Below, one piece after another: positions 12,105-47,189 of a stretch of 64,000 nt of DNA. The translations under genes were made by a program, and so were the position numbers. The stretch's first letter is position 1. The number at the start of each line of letters is the position of its first letter. The notes under the pieces were generated by a model that did not search any database, had not been told where the DNA came from, and worked only from the letters and a program-made list of their open reading frames with translations. Source of the DNA: Octopus vulgaris (Eukaryota); the NCBI GenBank assembly GCA_951406725.2, contig OX597816.1:181412001-181476000 (forward strand), in the 5' to 3' direction.

Positions 12105-14079
12105 AGAAATTTTTACGGAAATTAAGTATTAAAGGGTTTTTACAGAAAATAAAGTATTATACGATTTGAATCGCAATTAGTCAGTGAACCAAAGAGCCAG
12201 TATCGGAGGAACTAGAAAGAAGCCGTCAACAACATAAAAACACAAAACCGTTGTAAAAGTAAATGAGAAATTTTTACAGAATATAAAGTATTAACGTTTT
12301 GAAGCGCAATTTGTCAGTGAACCAAAGAGCCAGTATCGGAGGAACTAGAAAGAAGACGTAAACAACATAAAAACACAAAACCGTTGTAAAAGTAAATGAA
12401 AAATTTTTACAAAAAATAAAGTATTAAACTAAAGTATTAAAATAAAGTATCGAAGGAACTAGAAAAAAAATGCGCAAAAATACAAAACCGTTGTAAAATT
12501 TTTACGGAAAATAAAGTAGTAGAGGGTTTGAATTGCAATTTGTCAGTGAACCAAAGAGCTTGTATCGAAGGAACTAGAAAGAAGCCGTGAACAACACAAA
12601 AACACAAAACCGTTTGATGAGTAAAGAAGAAATGTTTACAGAAAATAAAGTATTAAAAGGTTTGAATCGCTATTTGTCAGTGAACCAAAGATCCAGTACC
12701 GAAGGAACTAGAAAAAAGCCGTAAACAACAGAAAAACACAAAACCGTTGTAAAGGAAACTAAGAAATTTTTACAGAAACTAAAGTTTATTATCGGTTTGA
12801 AGCGCAATTTGTCGGTGAACGAAAGATCAAGAATCGATGGAACTAAAAAAAGGCGGAAACAACAGAAAAACAGAAAACCGTTGTAAAAGTAAACGAGAAA
12901 TTTTTTCGGAAAAGTAAGTATTAAACGGTTTGAATTGCAATTTGTCAGTGAACGAAAGAGCCAGTATCGAAGGAACTTGAAAAAAGACGTAAATAGCAGA
13001 AAAACAAAACCGTTGTAAAAGTAAATGAGAAATTTTAACGGAAAATAAAATAGTAAACGTTTGAAGCGCAATTTGTCAGTGAACCAAAGATCCAGTATCG
13101 AATGATATAGAAAAAGCCGTTATAACACAAAACCGTTGTAAAACCGTTGTAAAAGTAAACAAGAAATTTTTACAAAAAAAAAGTATTAAACGGTTTGAAG
13201 TTCAATTTATCAGTGAACCAATGAGCCAGTATCGACGGAACTAGAAATATTTACTTTTACAACGGTTTTGTGTTTTTATGTTGTTTCCGACTTTTTTGTA
13301 GTTCCTTCGATACTGGCTTATTGGTTCACTGTCAAATATCGCTCCAGACCGTTTATATTACTTTATTTTCTGTAAAAATGTCTCATATACTTTTACAACG
13401 GTTTGGTGTTTTTCTGTTGTTTACGGCTTTTTTCTAGTTCCATCGATACTGGTTCAAGTTCAGTGAACCAAAGAGCCAGTATCGAAGGAACTACAAAGAA
13501 GCCATAAACAACAGATAAACAAAACCGTTGTAAAAGTAAATAAGAAATTTTTACAGGAATAAAGTATGAAACGGTTTGGAGCGCAATTTGTCTGAACTAA
13601 AGAGCCAGTATCGACGGAACTAGAGAAAAGCCGTAAAAAACCTTTTCATACTTTATTTTCCGTAAAAATTTCTTATCTACTTTTACAATGGTTTTGGGTT
13701 TTTCTTTTAATTCCGACTTTTTTGTAGTTCCTTCGATACTGGCTCTTTGGTTCACTGAACTAGAACCAGTATCGATGGAACTAGAAAAAAGCCGTAAACA
13801 ACAGAAAATCAAGACTGTTGTAAAAGTAAATAAGAAATTTTTACATACGATAACGTATTAAACGGTTTGAAGCGGAATTTGTCAGTGAACCAAAGAGCCA
13901 GTATCGAAGGAACTACAAAAAAGACGGAAACAAGAGAAATAAACCAAACCGTTGTAAAAGTAGATAAGAAATTTTTACGGAAAATAAAGTAGTAAAAGGT
14001 TTGAAGCGCTGGTCAGTGAACCAAAGAGCCAGTATCGAAGGAACTAGGAAAAAGCCGTAAACAACACAAAAACAAAACC

Positions 14080-14564
14080 TATTTCTTTATTACCCACTAG
14101 GGGCCATATAGAGGGGACATTACAAACATTGGGGGACATGGAACATCACAATTACATAGATATGAGTGAAATGAATTTTGAAAATGATATATGAAAGCGG
14201 TGCCACTTACCTGTCCTTTTGTTTTCACTGTCACCTGAATGTTCATTCCCAATACGAAGACCATCCATATCCATTCTAGGTATAACCAAGCTTTCGATCC
14301 ATCATTCTCACTGCCTGTTCCAGTTCCTCCTCAGACGTAGACAAGTCTGTTAGGGAATCAAAGTCCATTTCCTTCTGTCTGACAGACCGAAAACGGCCGC
14401 CCGGACAGAAAAAGTGTAACGCGTAGCACCAGCGAAACGCGAAACCGCATCAACGACGTTCAAAATTTCACAACAACAACAATTCACTTTTTGTTCTTTT
14501 TTCTTTTTTAACCGAATTTTACAGAGCGCAAAAAAACACAACCGTTCAACGCAAAAAAACACGA
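14080..14564 (-). mobile_element. Internally deleted copy 1 of the ORF1-only non-LTR element
   Basis: Near-identical to 17537-17734 joined to 18845-19133. Retains the 5' leader, the ORF1 start (MDFDSLTDLSTSEEE) and the 3' tail. Confidence 0.85.
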
Positions 14565-15292
14565 TCAGTGAACCAAAGAGCCAGTATCGAAGGAACTAGA
14601 AAAAAGCCGTAAACAACAGAAAAACAAAACCGTTGTAAAAGTAAATAAGAAATTTTTTCAGAAAATAAAGTATTAAACGGTTTGAAGTTCAATTTGTCAT
14701 TGAACCAAAGATCCAGTATCGAAGGAACTAGAAAAAAGCCGTAAACAACAGAAAAACAAAACCGTTGTAAAGGTAAATAAGAAATTTTTTCAGAAAATAA
14801 AGTATTAAACGGTTTGAAGTTCAATTTGTCAGTGAACTAAAGATCCAGTATCGAAGGAAATAGAAAAAAGCCGTAAACAACAGAAAAACACCGAATCGTT
14901 GTAAAAGTATATGAACATTTTTTACAGTAAATAAAGTAATAAACGGTTTGTAGCGATATTTGTCAATGAACAAAAGAGCCAGTATCGAAGGAACTATAAA
15001 AAAGCCGTAAACAACAGAAAATCAAGACTGTTGTAAAAGTAAATAAGAAATTTTTACAGAAGATAACGTATTAAACGGTTTGAAGCGGAATTTGTCAGTG
15101 AACCAAAGAGCCAGTATCGAAGGAACTACAAAAAAGACGGAAACAAGAGAAATAAACCAAACCGTTGTAAAAGTAGATAAGAAATTTTTACGGAAAATAA
15201 AGTAGTAAAAGGTTTGAAGCGCTGGTCAGTGAACCAAAGAGCCAGTATCGAAGGAACTAGGAAAAAGCCGTAAACAACACAAAAACAAAACC

Positions 15293-15777
15293 TATTTCTT
15301 TATTACCCACTAGGGGCCATATAGAGGGGACATTACAAACATTGGGGGACATGGAACATCACAATTACATAGATATGAGTAAAATGAATTTTGAAAATGA
15401 TATATGAAAGCGGTGCCACTTACCTGTCCTTTTGTTTTCACTGTCACCTGAATGTTCATTCCCAATACGAAGACCATCCATATCCATTCTAGGTATAACC
15501 AAGCTTTCGATCCATCATTCTCACTGCCTGTTCCAGTTCCTCCTCAGACGTAGACAAGTCTGTTAGGGAATCAAAGTCCATTTCCTTCTGTCTGACAGAC
15601 CGAAAACGGCCGCCCGGACAGAAAAAGTGTAACGCGTAGCACCAGCGAAACGCGAAACCGCATCAACGACGTTCAAAATTTCACAACAACAACAATTCAC
15701 TTTTTGTTCTTTTTTCTTTTTTAACCGAATTTTACAGAGCGCAAAAAAACACAACCGTTCAACGCAAAAAAACACGA
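15293..15777 (-). mobile_element. Internally deleted copy 2 of the ORF1-only element
   Basis: Near-identical to copy 1, offset by 1213 bp. Confidence 0.85.
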
Positions 15778-16505
15778 TCAGTGAACCAAAGAGCCAGTAT
15801 CGAAGGAACTAGAAAAAAGCCGTAAACAACAGAAAAACAAAACCGTTGTAAAAGTAAATAAGAAATTTTTTCAGAAAATAAAGTATTAAACGGTTTGAAG
15901 TTCAATTTGTCATTGAACCAAAGATCCAGTATCGAAGGAACTAGAAAAAAGCCGTAAACAACAGAAAAACAAAACCGTTGTAAAGGTAAATAAGAAATTT
16001 TTTCAGAAAATAAAGTATTAAACGGTTTGAAGTTCAATTTGTCATTGAACCAAAGATCCAGTATCGAAGGAACTAGAAAAAAGCCGTAAACAACAGAAAA
16101 ACACCGAATCGTTGTAAAAGTATATGAACATTTTTTACAGAAAATAAAGTAATAAACGGTTTGTAGCGATATTTGTCAATGAACCAAAGAGCCAGTATCG
16201 AAGGAACTATAAAAAAGCCGTAAACAACAGAAAATCAAGACTGTTGTAAAAGTAAATAAGAAATTTTTACAGAAGATAACGTATTAAACGGTTTGAAGCG
16301 GAATTTGTCAGTGAACCAAAGAGCCAGTATCGAAGGAACTACAAAAAAGACGGAAACAAGAGAAATAAACCAAACCGTTGTAAAAGTAGATAAGAAATTT
16401 TTACGGAAAATAAAGTAGTAAAAGGTTTGAAGCGCTGGTCAGTGAACCAAAGAGCCAGTATCGAAGGAACTAGGAAAAAGCCGTAAACAACACAAAAACA
16501 AAACC

Positions 16506-16965
16506 TATTTCTTTATTACCCACTAGGGGCCATATAGAGGGGACATTACAAACATTGGGGGACATGGAACATCACAATTACATAGATATGAGTAAAATGA
16601 ATTTTGAAAATGATATATGAAAGCGGTGCCACTTACCTGTCCTTTTGTTTTCACTGTCACCTGAATGTTCATTCCCAATACGAAGACCATCCATATCCAT
16701 TCTAGGTATAACCAAGCTTTCGATCCATCATTCAAACGTAGACAAGTCTGTTAGGGAATCAAAGTCCATTTCCTTCTGTCTGACAGACCGAAAACGGCCG
16801 CCCGAACAGAAAAAGTGTAACGCGTAGCACCAGCGAAACGCGAAACCGCATCAACGACGTTCAAAATTTCACAACAACAACCATTCACTTTTTGTTCTTT
16901 TTTCTTTTTTAACCGAATTTCACAGAGCGCAAAAAAACACAACCGTTCAACGCAAAAAAACACGA
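16506..16965 (-). mobile_element. Internally deleted copy 3 of the ORF1-only element, with an extra ~25-bp deletion
   Basis: Same junction CCATTC-TAGGTATAACC as copies 1 and 2. Lacks TCACTGCCTGTTCCAGTTCCTCCTC near 16733. Confidence 0.85.
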
Positions 16966-17536
16966 TCAGTGAACCAAAGAGCCAGTATCGAAGGAACTAG
17001 AAAAAAGCCGTAAACAACAAAAACAAAACCGTTGTAAAAGTAAATAAGAAATTTTTTCAGAAAATAAAGTATTAAACGGTTTGAAGTTCAATTTGTCATA
17101 GAACCAAAGAGCCAGTATCGAAGGAAATAGAAAAAAGCCGTAAACAACAGAAAAACACAAAACCGTTGTAAAAGTAAACAAAAATTTTTTACAAAAAATA
17201 ACGTATTAAACGGTTTGAAGCGCAATTTGTCAAGGAACTAGAAAAAAGCCGTAAACAACAGAAAAACAAAACCGTTGTAAAGGTAAATAAGAAATTTTTA
17301 CATACGATAACGTATTAAACGGTTTGAAGCGGAATTTGTCAGTGAACCAAAGAGCCAGTATCGAAGGAACTACAAAAAAGACGGAAACAAGAGAAATAAA
17401 CCAAACCGTTGTAAAAGTAGATAAGAAATTTTTACGGAAAATAAAGTAGTAAAAGGTTTGAAGCGCTGGTCAGTGAACCAAAGAGCCAGTATCGAAGGAA
17501 CTAGGAAAAAGCCGTAAACAACACAAAAACAAAACC

Positions 17537-19133
17537 TATTTCTTTATTACCCACTAGGGGCCATATAGAGGGGACATTACAAACATTGGGGGACATGGAA
17601 CATCACAATTACATAGATATGAGTAAATTGAATTTTGAAAATAATATATGAAAGCGGTGCCACTTACCTGTCCTTTTGTTTTCACTGTCATCTGAATGTT
17701 CATTCCCAATACGAAGACCATCCATATCCATTCTTACTCCGAAATACTCCTCCATATTTTCCACGAATTCATCGCTCATTCTTGTATCTTTCACCTCCCA
17801 ATTCTCCCTTTCACACCTCAACGCAAACTCATCTATATTCTTCTTTTCCAGCACTGCATATCTGGTCTCACCTATTTATACTCCTCCATTACCCTTTTCA
17901 CTTCTTTCTGTTCAGTCATAATATAAATGTTCGGCCTGGGTTCGATTTCAAACTCTTGTCTGTCTGTATTATTTTTTTCTTTTGTTTTCTTGTTGGAGGG
18001 GAGCGGGTGGGTTCACTGTCTGCAGGGATAGGGTGGGTCTGAGAGGGTGTGGGTGGTGTTGGGGTGGATTGGTGTTCTATGTTATTTTCTTTTCCTCGTA
18101 TTCTCCTCTTCCTCTTATTCCCAGCTTCCTTCCATTTCTGTGAATTCTCTTCTACTGTCTCCTTCTCCTCTGGTTTCTGCTTCTCTCTCTGTGGTTCGGA
18201 ATCCATTTCTTTCACTGAGGGAGGGCAGAAGGCTCTTATGTGACCCCTCAGGCCACACTTGTAACAACGTGGAGCTCTGCCCTCCACCCCACACTCTCAT
18301 GATCACGTCTCCCAATCTGATGCTTTCCGCCAGGTCCACCAGTACCTCGTTCTCTGCTTGCACGTTCAGCTCCACTGTTACGCCTCTCCAGCCCTCGGTC
18401 ATAACCGAGGCATGGAGAATATCCACTTCCTCCTCGTGGCCGCTGATCACAGCCGCCACAATCCACTCTGCCTCCACGTTTGGTGGCACTCCCTCGACCT
18501 TTACTCGTGTAATTTTTCTGTTTAAATACGTAGGCAAAAGTGTTACCTTTTCGGATTTCACCGCCTTCGCCGCCATCTTCCTTGCTGCATTCTCACTTTG
18601 AAAATGTACCACTACAGTACCATACTTTGATCCTCGAGTCAGAAAATTAATTTCCTCCATTCCATGTTTACAACTTCTATCTTCTTCCTTTCGTTTGCGA
18701 AAACCCTGTATATAATGGTCCTTTTATCATACCATTCTTTTCTCTTGGGTGTCGGTGCTAGTTCCACCTCACCGCTATCCTTTTTCATATATTTCTGGTA
18801 ACTTGGCACCCCTTTCTCTTCCGCCTTCTTGGTTACACCGGCATAGGTATAACCAAGCTTACGATCCATCATTCTCACTGCCTGTTCCAGTTCCTCCTCA
18901 GACGTAGACAAGTCTGTTAGGGAATCAAAGTCCATTTCCTTCTGTCTGACAGACCGAAAACGGCCGCCCGAACAGAAAAAGTGTAACGCGTAGCACCAGC
19001 GAAACGCGAAACCGCATCAACGACGTTCAAAATTTCACAACAACAACCATTCACTTTTTGTTCTTTTTTCTTTTTTAACCGAATTTCACAGAGCGCAAAA
19101 AAACACAACCGTTCAACGCAAAAAAAAACACGA
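17537..19133 (-). mobile_element. ORF1-only (HAL1-like) non-autonomous L1/Tx1-type retroelement, longest copy
   Basis: 5' leader, a frameshifted ORF1, then a short 3' UTR ending GCCCCTAGTGGGTAATAAAGAAATA. There is no ORF2 between ORF1 and the tail. Confidence 0.75.
17609..18935 (-). pseudogene. L1/Tx1-type ORF1 (gag-like RNA-binding protein with RRM-like region and zinc knuckle), frameshifted
   Basis: ORFs 18639-18935, 18115-18660, 17916-18287 and 17609-17854 chain together. Motifs GTVVVHFQSENAA and ITRVKVEGVPPNV; CCHC knuckle CYKCGLRGHIRAFC. Confidence 0.8.
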
Positions 19134-19533
19134 TCAGTGAACCAAAGAGCCAGTATCGGAAAAAACTTGAAAAAAGCCGTAAACAACAGAAAAACAAAAC
19201 CGTTGTAAAGGTAAATAAGAAATTTTTTCAGAAAATAAAGTATTAAACGGTTTGAAGCGCAATTTTTCACTGACCCAAAGAGCCAGTATCGAAGGAAATA
19301 GAAAAAAGCCGTAAACAACAGAAAATCAAGACTGTTGTAAAAGTAAATAAGAAATTTTTACAGAAGATAACGTATTAAACGGTTTGAAGCGGAATTTGTC
19401 AGTGAACCAAAGAGCCAGTATCGAAGGAACTACAAAAAAGACGGAAACAAGAGAAATAAACCAAACCGTTGTAAAAGTAGATAAGAAATTTTTACGGAAA
19501 ATAAAGTAGTAAAAGGTTTGAAGCGCTGGTCAG

Positions 19534-22259
19534 GGAAACTACTCTAGTTAAGGAATTAGAGGAAGCCATGAAAACTGGCTCTGCGGCTCAGGTGGCGTCC
19601 AAGAGACTGGTGTTAAACCAGCACCTCGAGGCCAAACACATGGGCTGCATTGTCAGGGCTAGAATCCGTCATATGGGATGTGAAGGAATCAACGCCGTGA
19701 GATGGGCCCGAGTGGTGGAAGCCCGGAATGGCAACGATGCCACGATTCGATCTTTGAAGAACCAACAAGGTGAGTTGATAGACGAACCCGAGGAGATGTG
19801 TGAGGCCTTTCAGGAGCACTTCGCTCAGCTTTTCGGTGAGTGCGGCGGGCTGGATAGGAGGAGGGCCTTTACGGACCTACTCGACGGGCTGCCGCGCTTA
19901 TCGGGGCGAGATGCGGAGGGCTGTGAAGGGCCAATCACGCCTGAGGAGGTGGTGGAGGCAATGGTTGACTGCGGCGCGGGCAAGGCGCCGGGTTTGGATG
20001 GTCTACCCTACGAGTTATATAAGAGTATGCCAGACTTGTTCGGGCACCTACTGGCGGAGGTCTATGCGAACTGGCAGCAGAACGGGCTTATACCCAGATC
20101 TGTGCGCCGGGGAGTGGTGACTCTCGTCAGAAAGGACCCGAGCAAGGGGGAGTGCATTGATAATTTCAGGCCCATCACTCTGCTAAACACAGAGTTGAAG
20201 ATTTTGGCCAAAGTGTTATCGAAAAGATTGGCGCGTGTCGCGGATGGTCTGATCGGAGAGGCACAGACATGTGCCGTTCCGGGCAGATCCATTCAGGATA
20301 ATCTCCATCTAATGCGGTACACTATAGAGGGGTTTAATAATGATTCTGGCAAGGGTGGGGTACTGGTCCATTTAGACCAATCTAAAGCCTTTGATAGGGT
20401 CGACCATCGTTACCTGGTATCTGCCCTGGCACAGTTCGGGCTGAGCCTTGGCTTCCTCAGGTGGATTATCCAAATTTACGACAACATCGACTCGGTAGTT
20501 CGGGTGAACGGCTTCTTGTCGAAGCCGTTCAAAATCAAACGCTCGGTTCGTCAAGGGTGTCCGCTCTCCCCGCTTTTGTATGTGATGGCTCTTGAGCCAT
20601 TACTGCGAAAACTGAGCGGCATCCCGAGACGGCCAGGTAATGGAAAATCAGTGTCAGCGTACGCGGACGACATCACCATCATCGTGACCGAAATGGACCA
20701 CCTATGTAAAGTAGGCAAGGCCATAGAGGTTTACGAGACGGTGACAGGAGCAAAAGTTAATCGCGAAAAGTCAGTCGGCTTGCAACTCGGCACCTGGAGA
20801 GGCAAGTCGATGCCTCCTGACAGCGTCGTGGGACGTTGGACGGAGGGTCCGATTAAACTGCTAGGGGTCTGGTTCGGTCCAGACCTCCAAATAGAGAAGA
20901 ATTGGGGCGAGGTAACGAGCAAGGTGGCTGCAGTAGCCAAGACCTGGTCTTGGCGGTGGCTATCCTTGAAAGGGAGGGCGGAGGTGGCCAATGTGTTTAT
21001 CGCATCGGTTATCACCTACCGCCTTTCCGTCGTTCCTTGCCCCGATTCGTGGTTGACCAAGTTGGAAAGACAGCTCTTCTACTTCTTGTGGAAGGGTAGG
21101 AAACCACTTGTGAAACGCTCTACTTGCTGTCAACAACCGTTAAAGGGTGGGCTAGGGATGCCTTGGCTGATGATGCGCAGACATGCGCTGAGGTTAAGAC
21201 ATCTGTGGCTCTACCTGGATGGTGAACGGGTGTGGTCTCCGTTAGCAAAACTGATGTTTCCCAAGTTCACTAGTTTCGGTGGACGGGAAACCTGGCCGAA
21301 TCGTAGATCGAAACTTGGTACATGGCATACGGAGTGTCGCAAGGCTCTCCTGCTATTCCGTCGCTCGGGCAACGCCTGCGGTGGGGGTTCCACCACATTC
21401 TTCTATAGAGGGTTGGTAGAGGCGAAATGTGAAGACACCTTGGGGGAAACCCTGGGTCTCGATGATAATCAGCTGGCCAGTCTGTTCCGACGTACGTTCG
21501 AGCCGAAGACACTGGACAACTTCCAGAAGTCTCTGGCATGGCAATGCTACAGAGGAGCTCTACCTGTTCGGGATAAACTCGCAAGGCACGGTGGCCAAGA
21601 CAGTCCGATGTGTCCAAGATGCGGGCGGGATAGGGAAACCGTCCCGCACGCTATTGTTCATTGTTCGGTCGTGTCTGAGGTGTGGGTTTATGCCGAACAG
21701 CTGTTGTCAAGCACACGAAGAGTACAGCTGTCGACTGAGTGTATTAAAAAAATTGACCCACCAGATTTCCTCGCGAAAGAAGGTAAGAATTGTTTTCTCG
21801 TTGTGGTTGCAATTGCGAAAGAGGTGATATGGAAGACGAGAATGAAAGGTATACGGTCAGGTAAGTTCATATCCGGCCCTGGGTTGATGAATTACTTCAT
21901 CTACCACCTGAAAAGGAAGATAGGGCTGGAGAGAAAATGCCTGACTAAAAGAGTGTATGAAGAACGATGGAAGGATGTAGCACGGAAGTTGAGAATGGAT
22001 GACACCACATAAATGTAAATCAGAACGAAACCAAAAGTATCAGTGGTGAGGCGGGGCTCGTGGGGTCCGAGCTGAACCCGCCCCCACTCCACCTGTAATG
22101 TATTCCGGTCTGTTTTTTTCATTCGATTTTATAATTTTTGCATTTTTGTGAATTTTTGAATTTTTAATCTCATCCTTTTTGTAACCCCATCCGAGAATCT
22201 GACCCCATATCAGGTTGTATTGTCCCCTCTTTGTTGGCCCCTTGTGGGTAATAAAACAG
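19534..22259 (+). mobile_element. 5'-truncated Tx1/L1 LINE including its 3' UTR
   Basis: Starts abruptly after satellite GAAGCGCTGGTCAG. The 3' UTR ends TGTCCCCTCTTTGTTGGCCCCTTGTGGGTAATAAAACAG. Confidence 0.88.
19568..22012 (+). CDS. Non-LTR retrotransposon ORF2 (L1/Tx1 clade): RT plus C-terminal CCHC, with the APE endonuclease lost by 5' truncation
   Basis: 814-aa open frame with KAPGLDG, NFRPITLLNTELKILAK, LDQSKAFDRVDH, VRQGCPLSPLLY, AYADD, LSLKGR, KGGLG and CPRCGRDRETVPHAIVHC. Confidence 0.95.
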   Translation: MKTGSAAQVASKRLVLNQHLEAKHMGCIVRARIRHMGCEGINAVRWARVVEARNGNDATIRSLKNQQGELIDEPEEMCEAFQEHFAQLFGECGGLDRRRAFTDLLDGLPRLSGRDAEGCEGPITPEEVVEAMVDCGAGKAPGLDGLPYELYKSMPDLFGHLLAEVYANWQQNGLIPRSVRRGVVTLVRKDPSKGECIDNFRPITLLNTELKILAKVLSKRLARVADGLIGEAQTCAVPGRSIQDNLHLMRYTIEGFNNDSGKGGVLVHLDQSKAFDRVDHRYLVSALAQFGLSLGFLRWIIQIYDNIDSVVRVNGFLSKPFKIKRSVRQGCPLSPLLYVMALEPLLRKLSGIPRRPGNGKSVSAYADDITIIVTEMDHLCKVGKAIEVYETVTGAKVNREKSVGLQLGTWRGKSMPPDSVVGRWTEGPIKLLGVWFGPDLQIEKNWGEVTSKVAAVAKTWSWRWLSLKGRAEVANVFIASVITYRLSVVPCPDSWLTKLERQLFYFLWKGRKPLVKRSTCCQQPLKGGLGMPWLMMRRHALRLRHLWLYLDGERVWSPLAKLMFPKFTSFGGRETWPNRRSKLGTWHTECRKALLLFRRSGNACGGGSTTFFYRGLVEAKCEDTLGETLGLDDNQLASLFRRTFEPKTLDNFQKSLAWQCYRGALPVRDKLARHGGQDSPMCPRCGRDRETVPHAIVHCSVVSEVWVYAEQLLSSTRRVQLSTECIKKIDPPDFLAKEGKNCFLVVVAIAKEVIWKTRMKGIRSGKFISGPGLMNYFIYHLKRKIGLERKCLTKRVYEERWKDVARKLRMDDTT

Positions 22260-22780
22260 CTACGTAAGGTTGGTAGTTTATTTATGATGTGTTCAGAATC
22301 AGTTCTGCTGACGATCATTAGACGTAAGTTGAATGTGAAATCACGGTGATACAGAACTAAATTCATTTTTTAAATGTCTTGCTTTGAAAAACTGCATTTG
22401 GGTATGATTAGTATAATTTTGGTAGTAATGACTTTGTCCCTCCTAGTGTGAGGCATTTATGTGTAATAATGCCCTCTATACAATATAGATATAATTAATT
22501 TGTTCAAAAGAAAAAAATTATTTTCGGATTCTTTTCTTTTATGAGGTTTTCACGCTAGCTACCCGATAATTTCTTGTTAAGATCCCTTATTAAGAGATTA
22601 TCCTTAATTGTTAAACTTATTCCGAAATACTTTTCATTACCCGATATGCAGTTCGTAAAAAGCCCGCCATTTACCGGATATATGATTTATAAACATTACA
22701 TGTGCTTGGCCGGAGTGAGCAGTTGTCTATTCGTCATCGCTACGTAAGGTTGGTAGTTTATTTATGATGTGTTCAGAATC

Positions 22781-22880
22781 NNNNNNNNNNNNNNNNNNNN
22801 NNNNNNNNNNNNNNNNNNNNNNNNNNNNNNNNNNNNNNNNNNNNNNNNNNNNNNNNNNNNNNNNNNNNNNNNNNNNNNNN
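22781..22880. other. Assembly gap (100 N)
   Basis: Run of N. Confidence 1.
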
Positions 22881-25800
22881 ACATCAACAGGGTATTTTTG
22901 TATGTATGTATGTATGTATGTTTGTATGTATTTCATTATTCAGCTTTATTTCAAGATTTTTTGCCAATAGAGAAAAAGCCGGTTTCTAACCTAGATCCAA
23001 GACTCCTTCAATGGAATTTAAACAACATCAACAGGGTATTTTTGTATGTATGTATGTATGTATGTTTGTATGTATTTCATTATTCAGCTTTATTTCAAGA
23101 TTTTTTGCCAATAGAGAAAAAGCCGGTTTCTAACCTAGATCCAAGACTCCTTCAATGGAATTTAAACAACATCAACAGGGTATTTTTGTATGTATGTATG
23201 TATGTATGTTTGTATGTATTTCATTATTCAGCTTTATTTCAAGATTTTTTGCCAATAGAGAAAGAGCCGGTTTCTAACCTAGATCCAAGACTCCTTCAAT
23301 GGAATTTAAACAACATCAACAGGGTATTTTTGTATGTATGTATGTCTGTATGTTTGTATGTATTTCATTATTCAGCTTTATTTCAAGATTTTTTGCCAAT
23401 AGAGAAAAAGCCGGTTTCTAACCTAGATCCAAGACTCCTTCAATGGAATTTAGACAACATCAACAGGGTATTTTTGTATGTATGTATGTATGTATGTTTG
23501 TATGTATTTCATTATTCAGCTTTATTTCAAGATTTTTTGCCAATAGAGAAAGAGCCGGTTTCTAACCTAGATCCAAGACTCCTTCAATGGAATTTAAACA
23601 ACATCAACAGGGTATTTTTGTATGTATGTATGTATGTATGTTTGTATGTATTTCATTATTCAGCTTTATTTCAAGATTTTTTGCCAATAGAGAAAAAGCC
23701 GGTTTCTAACCTAGATCCAAGACTCCTTCAATGGAATTTAAACAACATCAACAGGGTATTTTTGTATGTATGTATGTATGTATGTTTGTATGTATTTCAT
23801 TATTCAGCTTTATTTCAAGATTTTTTGCCAATAGAGAAAAGCCGGTTTCTAACCTAGATCCAAGACTCCTTCAATGGAATTTAAACAACATCAACAGGGT
23901 ATTTTTGTATGTATGTATGTATGTATGTTTGTATGTATTTCATTATTCAGCTTTATTTCAAGATTTTTTGCCAATAGAGAAAAAGCCGGTTTCTAACCTA
24001 GATCCAAGACTCCTTCAATGGAATTTAAACAACATCAACAGGGTATTTTTGTATGTATGTATGTATGTATGTTTGTATGTATTTCATTATTCAGCTTTAT
24101 TTCAAGATTTTTTGCCAATAGAGAAAGAGCCGGTTTCTAACCTAGATCCAAGACTCCTTCAATGGAATTTAAACAACATCAACAGGGTATTTTTGTATGT
24201 ATGTATGTATGTATGTTTGTATGTATTTCATTATTCAGCTTTATTTCAAGATTTTTTGCCAATAGAGAAAAAGCCGGTTTCTAACCTAGATCCAAGACTC
24301 CTTCAATGGAATTTAAACAACATCAACAGGGTATTTTTGTATGTATGTATGTATGTATGTTTGTATGTATTTCATTATTCAGCTTTATTTCAAGATTTTT
24401 TGCCAATAGAGAAAAAGCCGGTTTCTAACCTAGATCCAAGACTCCTTCAATGGAATTTAAACAACATCAACAGGGTATTTTTGTATGTATGTATGTATGT
24501 ATGTTTGTATGTATTTCATTATTCAGCTTTATTTCAAGATTTTTTGCCAATAGAGAAAAAGCCGGTTTCTAACCTAGATCCAAGACTCCTTCAATGGAAT
24601 TTAAACAACATCAACAGGGTATTTTTGTATGTATGTATGTATGTATGTTTGTATGTATTTCATTATTCAGCTTTATTTCAAGATTTTTTGCCAATAGAGA
24701 AAAAGCCGGTTTCTAACCTAGATCCAAGACTCCTTCAATGGAATTTAAACAACATCAACAGGGTATTTTTGTATGTATGTATGTATGTATGTTTGTATGT
24801 ATTTCATTATTCAGCTTTATTTCAAGATTTTTTGCCAATAGAGAAAAAGCCGGTTTCTAACCTAGATCCAAGACTCCTTCAATGGAATTTAAACAACATC
24901 AACAGGGTATTTTTGTATGTATGTATGTATGTATGTTTGTATGTATTTCATTATTCAGCTTTATTTCAAGATTTTTTGCCAATAGAGAAAAAGCCGGTTT
25001 CTAACCTAGATCCAAGACTCCTTCAATGGAATTTAAACAACATCAACAGGGTATTTTTGTATGTATGTATGTATGTATGTTTGTATGTATTTCATTATTC
25101 AGCTTTATTTCAAGATTTTTTGCCAATAGAGAAAAAGCCGGTTTCTAACCTAGATCCAAGACTCCTTCAATGGAATTTAAACAACATCAACAGGGTATTT
25201 TTGTATGTATGTATGTATGTATGTTTGTATGTATTTCATTATTCAGCTTTATTTCAAGATTTTTTGCCAATAGAGAAAGAGCCGGTTTCTAACCTAGATC
25301 CAAGACTCCTTCAATGGAATTTAAACAACATCAACAGGGTATTTTTGTATGTATGTATGTATGTATGTTTGTATGTATTTCATTATTCAGCTTTATTTCA
25401 AGATTTTTTGCCAATAGAGAAAGAGCCGGTTTCTAACCTAGATCCAAGACTCCTTCAATGGAATTTAAACAACATCAACAGGGTATTTTTGTATGTATGT
25501 ATGTATGTATGTTTGTATGTATTTCATTATTCAGCTTTATTTCAAGATTTTTTGCCAATAGAGAAAAAGCCGGTTTCTAACCTAGATCCAAGACTCCTTC
25601 AATGGAATTTAAACAACATCAACAGGGTATTTTTGTATGTATGTATGTATGTATGTTTGTATGTATTTCATTATTCAGCTTTATTTCAAGATTTTTTGCC
25701 AATAGAGAAAAAGCCGGTTTCTAACCTAGATCCAAGACTCCTTCAATGGAATTTAAACAACATCAACAGGGTATTTTTGTATGTATGTATGTATGTATGT

Positions 25801-26630
25801 TTGTATGTATTTCATTATTCAGCTTTATTTCAAGATTTTTTGCCAATAGAGAAAAAGCCGGTTTCTAACCTAGATCCAAGACTCCTTCAATGGAATTTAA
25901 ACAACATCAACAGGGTATTTTTGTATGTATGTATGTATGTATGTTTGTATGTATTTCATTATTCAGCTTTATTTCAAGATTTTTTGCCAATAGAGAAAAA
26001 GCCGGTTTCTAACCTAGATCCAAGACTCCTTCAATGGAATTTAAACAACATCAACAGGGTATTTTTGTATGTATGTATGTATGTATGTTTGTATGTATTT
26101 CATTATTCAGCTTTATTTCAAGATTTTTTGCCAATAGAGAAAAAGCCGGTTTCTAACCTAGATCCAAGACTCCTTCAATGGAATTTAAACAACATCAACA
26201 GGGTATTTTTGTATGTATGTATGTATGTATGTTTGTATGTATTTCATTATTCAGCTTTATTTCAAGATTTTTTGCCAATAGAGAAAGAGCCGGTTTCTAA
26301 CCTAGATCCAAGACTCCTTCAATGGAATTTAAACAACATCAACAGGGTATTTTTGTATGTATGTATGTATGTATGTTTGTATGTATTTCATTATTCAGCT
26401 TTATTTCAAGATTTTTTGCCAATAGAGAAAGAGCCGGTTTCTAACTAGATCCAAGACTCCTTCAATGGAATTTAAACAACATCAACAGGGTATTTTTGTA
26501 TGTATGTATGTATGTATGTTTGTATGTATTTCATTATTCAGCTTTATTTCAAGATTTTTTGCATCAACAGATCCAAAGCTCCTTCAATGGAATTTAAACA
26601 ACATCAACAGGGTATTTTTGTATGTATGTA
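22881..26630. repeat. Homogeneous 144-bp tandem array, about 26 copies
   Basis: Unit ACATCAACAGGGTATTTTT(GTAT)n...GCCGGTTTCTAACCTAGATCCAAGACTCCTTCAATGGAATTTAAACA starts at 22881, 23025 and so on, with very few variants. Confidence 0.97.
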
Positions 26631-29583: not shown

Positions 29584-29967
29584 TTCGTTCCTTTATTGCC
29601 CACAGGGGGGCTAAACATAGAGGGGACAAGCAAGGACAGACAAAGCGATTAAGTCGATTATATCGACCCCAGTGCGTAGGCAAAGTCGACCTCGGTGGAA
29701 TTTGAACTCAGAACATAACGGCAGCCGAAATACCTATTTCTTTACTACCCACAAGGGGCTAAACACAGAGAGGACAAACAAGGACAGACAAACGGAGTAA
29801 GTCGATTACATCGACCCCAGTGCGTAACTGGTACTTAATTTATCGACCCCGAAAGGATGAAAGGCAAAGTCGACCTCGGCGGAATTTGAACTCAGAACGA
29901 AACGGCAGAGGAAATACGGCTACGCATTTCGCCCGGCGTGCTAACGTTTCTGCCAACTCGCCGCCTT
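29584..29967 (-). mobile_element. Dimeric tRNA-derived SINE with a Tx1-like 3' tail and a 16-bp target-site duplication
   Basis: TSD TGCATTTTCATAAGCA at 29568-29583 and 29968-29983. The two units each end GCCCC.TGTGGGYARTAAAG. Confidence 0.9.
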
Positions 29968-32469: not shown

Positions 32470-33382
32470 AATGGAAGTGACAAAGGAGCACATTCGGCAT
32501 ATTTTGCTTTATGAGTTCAATAACGGCAACAACGCAATGGAAAGTGTGAGGAATATTAATGCAGTCTTTGGGGATCGGACGATAAGCATAAATTAGTGTC
32601 AATGGGGGTTCCAGAAATTTCGAGCTAGAAACTACAGCCAAGAAGGCAAGCCTCGTCCTGGAAGATATTTGTAGAGCAAACCCTGGTGGAACTGCCGAGG
32701 AACTAGCAGAGAAGCTTGGATTTGGTCAATCAACCATTTATCGACACCTGCGTGCCATCAGTAAAGTTAGCAAATTGGGTCAATGGGTTCCTCACAAACT
32801 TTCCGAGTCTAATCCCATGCACAGAGTGAATGTGTGCTCTTCTTTGCTGTCACATCTCATGAATGAACCGTTTTTGGACCAAATAGTGACTGGTGATGAG
32901 AAATGGGTTCTCTACAAAAGTGTCAAGTCCGAAGACAGTGGGTAGGGAAAAGAGAAACACTGGTACCCCAGGCTAAAGAAAGTCTTCACCCATGTAAGGT
33001 GTTGTTATCTGTTTGGTGGGATATGAAAGGCTTAGTCCCCTTTGAAGCTTTAAACTGAAACCAAATGATAACAAAGGAGATCTGCTGGGAGCAGCTTGGG
33101 TGGCTTAAGGTAGCAGTAGAAAAAAAATGACCACTTTTGGTTTCAAGAGGAAAGGTGTTCTTCCATCAGGATAATGCTTGGCCCTGTCTGATTATCATTT
33201 ATTCTGCAGCCTTCAAAATCATTTGGACAGAAAAAATATGAATTCTGTAGACGAGGTCAGAACAGTACCGGAGGAGTATTTTCCATCACGGACAAGTGAA
33301 TTTTAGAAGAGGGGCCTTGCAAGTCTACCAGATAAATGGGAGAGCATTGTAGAAAGTGAAGGAGGGTATATTTTAGATTAAA
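32470..33382 (+). pseudogene. Degenerate mariner transposase
   Basis: MEVTKEHIRHILLYEFNNG..., WVPHKL, VTGDEKWVLY, LSVWWDMKG and FHQDNA, with many stops and frameshifts. Confidence 0.85.
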
Positions 33383-35545: not shown

Positions 35546-36690
35546 TACAGAGTGGGCCGTAATGTTGGGACACATTTTAATTGCTAGTATCTTGGGTTAT
35601 AAAAATGACATAGAGTACCAAATACAGTTATGTAATAAATAACTGATATACAGCAATTCAACATATCTAAGATTTTACAATTTTTACAGGTAGATGGTGC
35701 TGGTGACCCTCATAATGTTGTGGACTCCAAACGAAATTGCATACGTTGGTGAAGCATATTTCACCAGCCAAAGATCCATCGTTGCTGCCCAAAGAAAATC
35801 TCGACAGTGTTTTGGAAAGCGATAGGTATCATCCTGAAAGATGGTCCTGTGTGCGGTCACAAACTTTCGTGAGACAAACGATACGGAGAAGAATAAAAAC
35901 CCCAGGTCGATCTCGAACGTCTCGTGGTGCATATGATATTTTTGTTGTCTTCTAGTCAAGTAGGCAGTGCCTATGAGACATACGGGGTTTCCGAGGCTAG
36001 TGGAAGAGAGGAGGAAGGTAGCTCCAAACCGGAGACCTGGCTTGAAAGCTTACTGTAGAGTAAACTCTGCAAAAAGGTTTGCTAAAGACACTCAATTACT
36101 CGGTGTTTCTGTTAAACAACTCAAATAAAACGCTTTTGAAGAAAGTCCCTCGAATTCCACGCATCGATTCGCTTAACAGTTGAATATTTCGCGAACCAGT
36201 GTCTGAAAGATTTGAAAACATGACATACACTTGTATCCATGTAAGGTACAGCTAGTGCAGCAATTGCCTCCGCCAGATAAGATGCAAAGAAAGACTTTTA
36301 GTGATTGGTTCGCCAATATGTGCTGGGAGGAAGAGGATTTCATCAGATGAAGTTCCTTTTAACCTTTTTGATTATGTTAATAAATGAAATTGTAGGTTTT
36401 GGGGGTTGTGAAAGTCCTCAAATCGTGCATGAAAGGACTTTGCACAGTGAGGGGGTTACAGTGTGGTGTGCGGTGACTTATGCATGTGTGGCTGGTGCTT
36501 ACCTTTTTAAGGACGAACACGGTGCAGCTGTAAAGGTAACTGCTGAGCGCTACAACCATATGCTGAAGACCTTTCCCGAGTTACAGAAGCTTGCCCTGAC
36601 ACAGATGTGGATGCAACAAGATGGTGATTGTCAAGGACAACTCTTCGAGAATAATTCCCCAGACATCTCATTTCGCCGATAGTTGTTGTT
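35546..36690 (+). mobile_element. Degenerate Tc1-superfamily transposon, interrupted by a 205-bp insertion
   Basis: TA-CAGAGTGGGCC terminus. Translation includes SDE..F and LHSEGVTVWCAVTYACVAGAYLFKDEHG...MWMQQDG. Confidence 0.65.
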
Positions 36691-37877: not shown

Positions 37878-38325
37878 GGCTGAATCGTTAGCACGCCGGA
37901 CAAAATGCTTAGCAGTATTTCGTCTGCCGCTACGTTCTGAGTTCAAATTCCGCCGAGGTCGACTTTCATCCTTTCGGGGTCGATTAAATAAGTACCAGTT
38001 ACGCATTGGGGTCGATATAATCGACTTAATCCGTTCGTCTGTCCTTGTTTGTCCTCTCTGTGTTTAGCACCTTGTGGGTAGTAAAGAAATAGGTATTTCG
38101 TCTGCCGCTACGTTGTGAGTTCAAATTCCGCCGAAGTCGACTTTGCCTTTCATCCTTTCGGGGTCGATTAAATAAGTACCAGTTACGCACTGGGGTCAAT
38201 ATAATCGACTTAATCCGTTTGTCTGCCTTTCATTCTTTCTGAGCCGATAAAATATGTACCACTTGAACCCTGGGGTCGATCTCTTACCAGAAATTGCTGG
38301 CCTAGTACTAAAATTTGAAACTAAT
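37878..38325 (+). mobile_element. Multimeric Tx1-tailed tRNA SINE
   Basis: The first unit ends GCACCTTGTGGGTAGTAAAGAAATA and restarts at GGTATTTCGTCTGCCGC. Confidence 0.85.
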
Positions 38326-45893: not shown

Positions 45894-47189
45894 CATTGGG
45901 TTAGCAACTAAGTTCCCACCGTTTTTTTAAATTAAAATTTTTTTAAAGGTTTAATAAAAAAATAACAACTAATTAATCAATAATGTGTTCACCTTTGTTG
46001 TTTACAACTTCTCAACGTTCAACAAAATTTTCAATACCTTTTTGGTAGAAATCACCCGATTTCGACTCGAAAAATTGATCCAACCAAGCTATCAATTCTG
46101 CATCAGTATTGAACGAAACTCTGTGCATAGCATTTGAAAGAGATTGAAAGAGGTGGAAATCCGTTGGTGCTAAATCAGGAGAGTACAGTGAGTGTGGCAG
46201 CACTTCCCAGCCATACGTTTGAATGGCTTCCTTGGTCATATTGGCGATATGAGGGCGGGCTTTGTCGTGAAGCAGAAGAACTCCATGCTGCCGATTAGGT
46301 CTTTTCTCTTGAATAGCCGTGTTGGGTCGTTCCATCTGATGAACAAAGAGTTCCGCGTTGACCGTTTGGTTCCCTTCAAGCAATTCGTAATGGATAATCC
46401 CTTCCCAGTCCCACCATACGCACAACATCGTTTTACGCGGATGAAGATCTTGTTTCACGCACAGTGTCGCTTGTTTACCGGGGCTAAGCCATTCCTCATG
46501 CTGCTTCATATTGATGTACAGGCACCATTTTTCGTCGCCAGTAACGATTCGGCAAAGAAATTGTTGCTTGTGTCCATGAGTTGAGCGCTGACGAGCAAGC
46601 AAACCAGTGGAGATTGTGGCTCGTTGATTTTTGTTGTTGTCACTTAAAGCATGCGGAACCCATGCTCCATACTTCTGAACCTTACCCATCGAGTGAAGAT
46701 GCTTCTCCAAAGCAGTGTGGGAGCATTCCATTTTCTCTGCCAGTTTCCATGTCATTTGACAAGAATTTTCGTGCAAGAGTTGGTTTAATCGCTCTTCATC
46801 GAACTCAACTGGACGGCCAGAACGAGGTGCGTCTTTGAGGTCAAAACTTCCATTTTTGAACTTAACATACCAATCGTGAGCCGTTCTTTCAGCTATCGCA
46901 CCCTCTCCATACACAGCACAAATGTCGCGAGCAGCTTTTGCGGCCTTAGAACCTTGATTAAAAACAAAAAGAAGGTGTCGAAAATGCTCGTTTTTCTTAA
47001 CTGGACATTCCATTTAATGATCTGAAAATGAACAAAAATTAACAAAAGTTAATTAGAAAAAAAAAAGTTAAAATCGATTCTAAAATGATTCAAAAATAGA
47101 ATTCTCAAAAAAAATAGATTCCAAAATTTAAAAACACAATAAATCCCAAAATTAAAAAAAACGGCGGGTAATTAGTTGCCAATCCAATA
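45894..47189 (-). mobile_element. Full-length mariner (DD34D) element with TIRs
   Basis: Imperfect TIRs CATTGGGTTAGCAACTAAGTTCCCACCGTTTT and AAAACGGCGGGTAATTAGTTGCCAATCCAATA, flanked by TA. Confidence 0.92.
46012..47013 (-). CDS. Mariner transposase, near full length, with a probable premature stop about 12 codons before the normal end
   Basis: WVPHAL, VTGDEKW, LLHDKARPH and YSPDLAPTDFHLF. The frame continues EVVNNKGEHIID after the stop. Confidence 0.9.
   Translation of the reverse strand: MECPVKKNEHFRHLLFVFNQGSKAAKAARDICAVYGEGAIAERTAHDWYVKFKNGSFDLKDAPRSGRPVEFDEERLNQLLHENSCQMTWKLAEKMECSHTALEKHLHSMGKVQKYGAWVPHALSDNNKNQRATISTGLLARQRSTHGHKQQFLCRIVTGDEKWCLYINMKQHEEWLSPGKQATLCVKQDLHPRKTMLCVWWDWEGIIHYELLEGNQTVNAELFVHQMERPNTAIQEKRPNRQHGVLLLHDKARPHIANMTKEAIQTYGWEVLPHSLYSPDLAPTDFHLFQSLSNAMHRVSFNTDAELIAWLDQFFESKSGDFYQKGIENFVER

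Follow-up and report, generated by a model that had tools for sequence, protein, structure and literature searches.

The 64-kb window analysed here (the whole stretch of Octopus vulgaris DNA, 64,000 nucleotides) contains a block in which four minus-strand copies of a 1.6-kb ORF1-only element alternate with 134-bp satellite monomers. This block probably arose by one insertion into an older satellite array, after which the element and a few monomers were multiplied as DNA by unequal exchange, and the monomers are best read as the host array and not as the promoter of the element. Tandem amplification after a single insertion was one of two explanations put forward in an initial annotation. It is supported by the rare variant monomers that recur unchanged 3' of each tail, the minority alleles shared by all four copies, the mosaic structure of copy 3 and the element-free higher-order repeats of the satellite.

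Structure of the block

The tail junctions lie at 14078, 15291, 16504 and 17535 (spacing 1213, 1213 and 1031), just where the initial annotation had placed them, and its fixed head junction also held, all four heads meeting the monomer at one base (14564/5, 15777/8, 16965/6 and 19133/4). The junction phases are the same at every copy, with the tail at monomer phase 66 and the head at phase 132. Copy 4 (17535..19133, minus strand, 1599 bp) is the long one, with a leader, a frame-broken ORF1-like gene and a short 3' tail. Copies 1 (14078..14564, minus strand) and 2 (15291..15777, minus strand) are 487 bp long and differ by 1 substitution. The internal deletion that the first three copies had been said to share is indeed common to them and measures 1110 bp (17734-18843 of the long copy); copy 3 (16504..16965, minus strand, 462 bp) has a 25-bp deletion besides. 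Copy 3 is a mosaic, carrying the deletion and the tail-side alleles of copies 1 and 2 together with three head-side alleles of copy 4.

Between the copies, spacer 1 (14565..15290, 726 bp) holds 5.5 monomers, and spacer 2 (15778..16503, 726 bp) differs from it by 5 substitutions. Spacer 3 (16966..17534, 569 bp) matches the other two at its ends and is rearranged in its middle, so that both ends of the spacers are kept and the variation lies inside. The 3' flank of copy 1 (13752..14077) consists of 2.5 monomers and is bounded by an inversion, without further element; the 5' flank of copy 4 (19134..19533) consists of three monomers and is cut off by a fragment of a reverse transcriptase (RT) element. 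Each flank includes both variant monomers. The presence of identical variant monomers round each copy was borne out, as GAAGCGCTGGTCAG and GATAACGTATTAAAC occur five times each in the 64-kb window, always within 13849-19533. The contig of the window meets a gap 3 kb beyond the block.

The plain satellite array (3476..12104) is made of 132-134-bp monomers, T-rich on the plus strand, with no element inside and with a higher-order period of its own of about 1.78-1.80 kb. Its monomers differ by 13.4% on average, and the period, 1778-1799 bp, is kept without any element. A stretch of satellite in alternating orientation, with five orientation switches, follows at 12105..13758. Within the units, by comparison, monomers at matching positions are 0-5% apart. 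Every tail is followed on its 3' side by a single rare variant, identical in all five cases (5/5) and 9.3% away from the nearest of 59 plain-array monomers. Satellite monomer pieces gave 110 matches in the window, and because more than 100 such pieces were open to separate insertions, the finding of the same rare variant at all tails disfavours them. Two inversion breakpoints lie at or near the element junction phases, which raised the idea of a cleavage hot spot in the monomer; it was rejected, the independent events being too few. Among the tandem repeats of the 64-kb window there is no telomeric repeat array, and its Rfam matches are rRNA pieces only.

The element and its neighbour

The ORF1-like coding region (17916..18935, minus strand) is broken into at least three frames, begins with an ATG at 18935, and is predicted to encode an RRM/ferredoxin-like domain with a single CCHC knuckle after it; the coding sequence may possibly extend to about 17600. 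RRM plus CCHC is an ORF1 build. The element encodes an ORF1-like protein, and its long copy has neither endonuclease nor RT between ORF1 and the tail. Searched with HMMER, the ORF1 piece has 175 relatives at E<=0.001, of which those with a name are from Octopus only. The knuckle is weak in the query and above cut-off in 4 of the 22 relatives scanned. The structural model (pLDDT 82) matches RRM/ferredoxin-like folds at Z 6.7-8.6, a common fold that says nothing on function, and there is no L1 ORF1p structure among the fold-search matches listed. Word-indexed protein searches gave no match to the ORF1 piece, and neither the piece nor its profile gave anything better than E>0.1 against PDB sequences. 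Its atlas matches, at 0.88-0.91, are leads only.

The 3' tail (17535..17582, minus strand) is identical at 36 of 41 positions to the tail of the neighbouring RT fragment and is also found in three SINE-like repeats at 29757, 32268 and 38069. The fragment itself (19534..22260, plus strand) is a 5'-truncated L1/Tx1-type autonomous element with the same tail type, whose open RT and zf-RVT frame of 825 aa is without the endonuclease part. Its best match among solved structures is human L1 ORF2p (E 1e-51), with R2 at 1e-26. Its relatives carry an L1-like EN-RT-zf ORF2, and none of those listed bears a Tx1 name. We infer that the family of this fragment is the actual partner of the element. No description of the element family was found in the open-access literature; the family may already be catalogued in Repbase or Dfam, or in supplementary data to the O. 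vulgaris repeat paper (PMC13282606).

The element in public sequencing runs

We further examined contigs of four public runs (X1, X2, X6 and X7, of 24 listed). The depths given below add up all contigs and should not be read as copy numbers; contigs below 88% identity are uncounted. The element is abundant in all four runs. Each gave 948-2677 matching contigs, and loose ends occur near the head. All 30 of its 30 bins are covered in the four runs, no single contig spans it, and none of the joints listed leads to an ORF2. Summed depth of the variant monomer is 17.1 (X2), 9.47 (X6), 0 (X1) and 0 (X7), against 11,083, 3,624, 440,138 and 1,122 for the element body at 18218. At seven sites all four window copies share one allele; this is the minority form in 26 of the 28 depth counts by site and run, the site 18921 having it in the majority in X1 and X7. 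One X6 contig passes from the variant monomer into the tail. At site 17505, private to the tail-side monomer, non-consensus letters reach a depth of 4,319 in X1, a point against a single insertion, as is the result at 18921. The runs also show other 5' neighbours of the element.

Most element depth in the four runs stops near 19104, about 29 nt short of the monomer: the implied depth in X1, X2, X6 and X7 is 40,176, 1,305, 859 and 233 at 19078-19104, against 2,222, 272, 0 and 0 at 19117-19120. A 29-nt 5' extension (19105..19133, minus strand), partly monomer-like, lies between this common 5' end of the family (about 19104-19107) and the monomer. The initial annotation had described the whole leader as monomer-like, and this stands only for these first 29 nt, which are in phase with the monomer. 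They match the continuation of the monomer at 15 positions with one 2-base gap, a score reached by 5 of 1000 mononucleotide shuffles in a test picked after the match had been seen. The 199-nt leader as such does no better than chance. It was aligned with monomers in 12 tests, whole or by its first 130 nt, and its score was reached by 8-103 of 500 or 7-33 of 150 dinucleotide shuffles. Likewise, CTGTAAAATT, reported in the leader, is present in copies 1 and 2 only, copies 3 and 4 having a substitution there. The leader motif had 0 matches in metagenome contigs.

In X1, and there only among the joints listed, 19104 is joined to 17537 with three letters between and no monomer (depths 1453 and 56). 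The tail in this join could belong to a SINE or to the RT element, and a circle would give the same join.

A probable single insertion followed by unequal exchange

The mechanism that we propose starts from a non-autonomous L1/Tx1-type family, presumably moved in trans by an RT recognising the shared tail. Integration would have placed the tail at monomer phase 66 and the head at phase 132, with a mixed piece of 29 nt left at the junction. The flanking monomers would then have exchanged out of register, giving at least four (probably five) units, one of which would have lost 1110 bp and then been multiplied further, with monomers gained and lost inside the spacers. The ends of the block would have been cut by the inversion on the left and by the RT fragment on the right.

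An unlikely alternative is that the block, and others like it elsewhere, go back to several independent insertions by a subfamily of the element that targets the satellite or is transcribed from within it with a short monomer-derived 5' piece. The constant junction phases of the four copies are consistent with it, as is the in-phase match between the extension and the monomer (5 of 1000 shuffles). In X1 (summed depth 2,222) and X2 (272, or 16 times the variant-monomer depth) the extension is multi-copy, apparently with a common upstream flank, and an X2 contig appears to continue for at least 42 letters from 19117; more monomer-to-head junctions may thus exist than the block explains. The tail joins at GG, followed by a T-rich run, both in the satellite and in SINE dimers, and Tx1 elements, according to PMC4494074, often favour a repeat target and form tandems. 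Independent insertions, however, would not share one rare variant monomer, minority alleles and one deletion, and the 8.6-kb plain array is without the element. The repeat of about 67 bp across the insertion sides (97%) was rejected as a target-site duplication, since the two sides differ at two sites that are fixed in every copy.

It is less likely still that part of the block, unit 2 for example, is an assembly duplication near the contig end, which the 99.5% identity of units 1 and 2 and the gap 3 kb further on might suggest. Of 17 joints from contigs of X1, X2, X6 and X7, the 15 listed do not include that of the deletion, which is not the same as absence because contigs drop rare variants. 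Units 1 and 2 nevertheless differ at 6 of 1213 positions, all by substitution, and three of the six substitutions match the neighbouring monomer, while units 3 and 4 show monomer-sized indels and a mosaic pattern not readily made by misassembly. An assembly artefact would lower the copy number and leave the mechanism unchanged.

The second explanation of the initial annotation likens the monomers to the 5' promoter monomers of mouse L1, belonging to the element itself and spread into a satellite by head-to-tail insertion. The evidence does not support it, and we regard it as very improbable; the monomer-free 5' ends in the runs already largely refute it. A monomer does stand 5' of all four window heads at the same base, the nearest one being identical in three of the four. 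Against this, the satellite is far more diverged (13.4%) than units 1 and 2 are from each other (0.5%), the element depth mostly ends near 19104, and the tail-to-head join in X1 is free of monomers. The leader resembles the monomer no more than chance, the spacers vary in the middle and not at the far end as 5' truncation predicts, and both variant monomers recur on the 3' side of the last tail, where no further element follows. Judging from the depths in the four runs, full-length copies do not appear to start with monomers. Nor do the four window copies show the monomer losses at the far 5' end, or the monomer-free 3' side, expected of such an element; monomers follow all four tails. A minor subfamily may carry a short monomer-derived 5' piece.

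Finally, it is hardly conceivable that one long transcript, inverted at its 5' end by twin priming, gave both the block and the RT fragment in a single insertion: the minus-strand ORF1 does face a plus-strand 5'-truncated RT part with the same tail type, but the inverted part stops at a 3' tail of its own, not in endonuclease sequence, and is present four times, its tail is just 88% like the RT tail, and run depths already suggest an ORF1-only element at loci without the RT fragment.

Relation to known systems

Transposon tandems widened by unequal exchange are described for the R1 and Bari1 arrays of Drosophila (10.1101/158386). As there, identical junctions are repeated and later deletions were multiplied too; unlike there, each repeat unit combines one element with several satellite monomers and thus needs no double insertion, and only four units are seen. 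The 5' monomer promoters of mouse L1Md (PMC6454616, PMC9022269) likewise stand in tandem directly 5' of the ORF1 leader, as the monomers do in the four window copies, but here monomers also occur 3' of every tail and in a long element-free array, and are missing from the commoner 5' ends.

ORF1-only non-autonomous LINEs are represented by HAL1 (L1 clade), HeT-A (Jockey clade) and Ag-Sponge (CR1 clade) (PMC5786205, PMC5753468). Like these, the octopus element has a 5' end, an ORF1 and a 3' tail without ORF2, the tail being common to an RT-coding element. It differs from them in its cephalopod host, in an ORF1 of predicted RRM and CCHC build and in the broken frame of the window copy. The HeT-A analogy is apt in so far as an ORF1-like protein is all that the element codes for and head-to-tail placement can occur, if the X1 join is not due to a SINE tail or a circle. 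With the target-preferring retrotransposons and SINEs of the Tx1 clade (Tx1, Keno, Kibi, Koshi, Tx1-Mar and SINEU; PMC4494074) it shares an L1-like EN-RT-zf ORF2 in the relatives of its partner, short shared tails, insertion into repeats and tandem copies, its assignment to the L1 or Tx1 clade being provisional. In contrast to that group, the monomer-free tandem join holds three letters with no evident target duplication. The four window junctions, which might recall a Tx1-type target preference, most likely trace to one event.

On this reading, the block offers a clean small case of a known process, in which DNA-level duplication takes a retroelement into the higher-order repeat of a satellite. 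More useful is the ORF1-only L1/Tx1-type family itself, with a tail common to SINE-like repeats. One might speculate, with little confidence, that octopods harbour an abundant ORF1-only L1/Tx1-type element whose copies follow one another head to tail in HeT-A-like arrays without an intervening target site, and also a subfamily residing on a 134-bp rDNA-adjacent satellite by way of a monomer-derived 5' piece, which makes mixed higher-order repeats at several loci. If the direct head-to-tail joins were indeed genomic arrays at chromosome ends or centromeres, they would provide a parallel to HeT-A outside flies.

Structure and probable growth of the element block

In the block at about 13752-19533, four copies of a minus-strand, ORF1-only, probably L1/Tx1-type element alternate with 134-bp satellite monomers. 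The initial annotation was largely right about this layout: tails lie at 14078, 15291, 16504 and 17535, copies 1-3 share a 1110-bp deletion, and both variant monomer motifs flanking the copies occur five times in the window, always inside the block. Across 1213 bp, units 1 and 2 (each a copy with its adjoining monomers) show 6 substitutions, and monomers at matching positions across units differ by 0-5.3%; outside the block the mean difference is 13.4% (59 of 77 near-full monomers compared). The variant monomer 3' of the tails is identical in all five instances and at least 9.3% from every monomer of the element-free array. Variant monomers also extend beyond the last tail, stopping at an inversion, and precede the first head (5' end), stopping at a reverse transcriptase (RT) fragment. 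The spacers between copies (726, 726 and 569 bp, plus a cut one of 400 bp) have constant ends and a variable interior. Copy 3 matches copies 1-2 in its deletion and its tail-side alleles and copy 4 in three head-side alleles, a mosaic that marks exchange between neighbouring copies.

The first 20 kb of the window comprise, in order, degraded rDNA, GC-rich repeats, satellite, the element block and the RT fragment, followed by a gap at 22781. Within 1-3480, Rfam places 28S (1-847) and 5.8S (903-1061) on the minus strand, the 18S 3' end was recognised by eye near 1850-1915 (minus), and GC-rich repeats of about 215 bp each separate the rDNA from the satellite. The latter begins at 3476; it is possibly a subrepeat of the rDNA spacer, or simply lies next to rDNA. 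In its element-free part (3476-12104) many monomers have their nearest neighbours 1778-1799 bp off; this 1.78-1.80 kb period is an older higher-order repeat without the element. Between 12105 and 13790 the satellite flips orientation five times, the junction at 13435-13475 reappears reverse-complemented at 13745-13790, and two of the breakpoints lie at, or close to, the phases of the monomer where element head and tail join.

The older element-free satellite, near-identical units, identical variant monomers and mosaic copy 3 bear out tandem amplification after a single insertion, one of two readings first proposed. Most likely, with fairly high confidence, a decayed copy of a non-autonomous family inserted once into the older satellite; unequal exchange between flanking monomers would then have multiplied element and monomers together, and a deletion arising in one unit would have spread. 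In Drosophila, arrays of transposons have been described that grew by unequal exchange and in which later deletions were multiplied too (10.1101/158386).

The element family and neighbouring repeats

Copy 4 (17535-19133, minus strand) has a 199-nt leader followed by a coding region split among three or more frames, and contains neither endonuclease nor RT; ORF1-only LINE derivatives are a known class (PMC5786205, PMC5753468). The middle coding piece has 175 relatives. Of 10 relatives of the protein that were checked, 7 had names, 6 of these Octopus names; the closest named ones belong to Octopus sinensis, O. vulgaris and O. bimaculoides. A predicted 139-residue model (pLDDT 82) matches RRM and ACT/ferredoxin-like folds with middling scores, and a CCHC knuckle lies 3' of the modelled piece. 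The tail is identical at 36 of 41 positions to that of the RT fragment, and three SINE-like repeats have the same tail type. In SINE-like dimers at 29590-29950 and 37880-38230, whose heads are presumably tRNA-derived, the shared tail abuts the same internal site of the second copy.

The L1-like RT fragment (19534-22260, plus strand) shares 58% identity with an Argonauta protein, and its full-length relatives (about 1150 aa) combine endonuclease, RT and zf-RVT. The Argonauta match and the Octopus relatives of the element's protein give the window a cephalopod appearance. Its frame (19505-22012) is open throughout its 835 codons despite 5' truncation, which suggests a young insertion. For O. vulgaris, PMC13282606 gives a table of recent L1-Tx1 activity. 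The 41 bp 3' of its tail recur 480 bp on, right before the gap (22260-22780), and are perhaps the start of a further tandem repeat. A 144-bp array (22881-26562, 25.6 copies, 99% identical) begins at the gap. Open frames at 46012-47013, 32592-32945 and 36305-36682 are presumably mariner/Tc1 transposase pieces.

The element in public sequencing runs

Part of the element is present in 20 of the 24 runs listed (10 studies, four organism labels). We compared 17440-19300 with all contigs of four runs, one per label, at 88% likeness; the depths given are summed over contigs and should not be read as copy numbers. The element was covered in 30 of 30 bins in each run, and at the seven sites where all four copies agree, the window allele is the less frequent one in 26 of the 28 site-by-run counts. 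Relative to the shared-tail bin, its depth in run X1 is 36- to 110-fold above the other three. Implied depths, by arithmetic taking the drop to be at 19104, are 40,176, 1,305, 859 and 233 over 19078-19104, and 2,222 (X1), 272 (X2), 0 and 0 at 19117-19120. The 1110-bp deletion joint was absent among the joints listed for these contigs, and no single record spanned the whole element. The variant monomer has depths of 17.1 in X2 and 9.47 in X6; one X6 contig reads from it into a tail, so that this junction is present, at low depth, outside the assembly.

More element-monomer junctions than the four of the block may exist, in a larger array elsewhere or through a satellite-preferring subfamily. 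The 29-nt extension beyond the common family 5' end (19105-19133) is multi-copy in X1 and X2, at least 28 letters on its upstream side seem to be shared by an X2 contig and could be monomer, and in X1 non-consensus letters reach depth 4,319 at a position unique to the tail-side monomer. Target preference and tandem insertion are familiar traits of Tx1 elements (PMC4494074). The other first proposal, that the monomers are the element's own 5' promoter array and seeded the satellite, is not supported: the element lacks two tested features of the mouse L1 model, and the supposedly monomer-like leader does not resemble monomers as a whole (12 tests; 8-103 of 500, or 7-33 of 150, shuffles scored as high), the likeness holding for its first 29 nt only, which align in phase with how the monomer continues (a post hoc test; 5 of 1000 shuffles).

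In X1 contigs, three letters (GCG at depth 1453, GCT at depth 56) link 19104 to 17537, apparently a family tail set directly on the head. This head-to-tail join without monomer, found in one run for an ORF1-only element, is the lead to retain.
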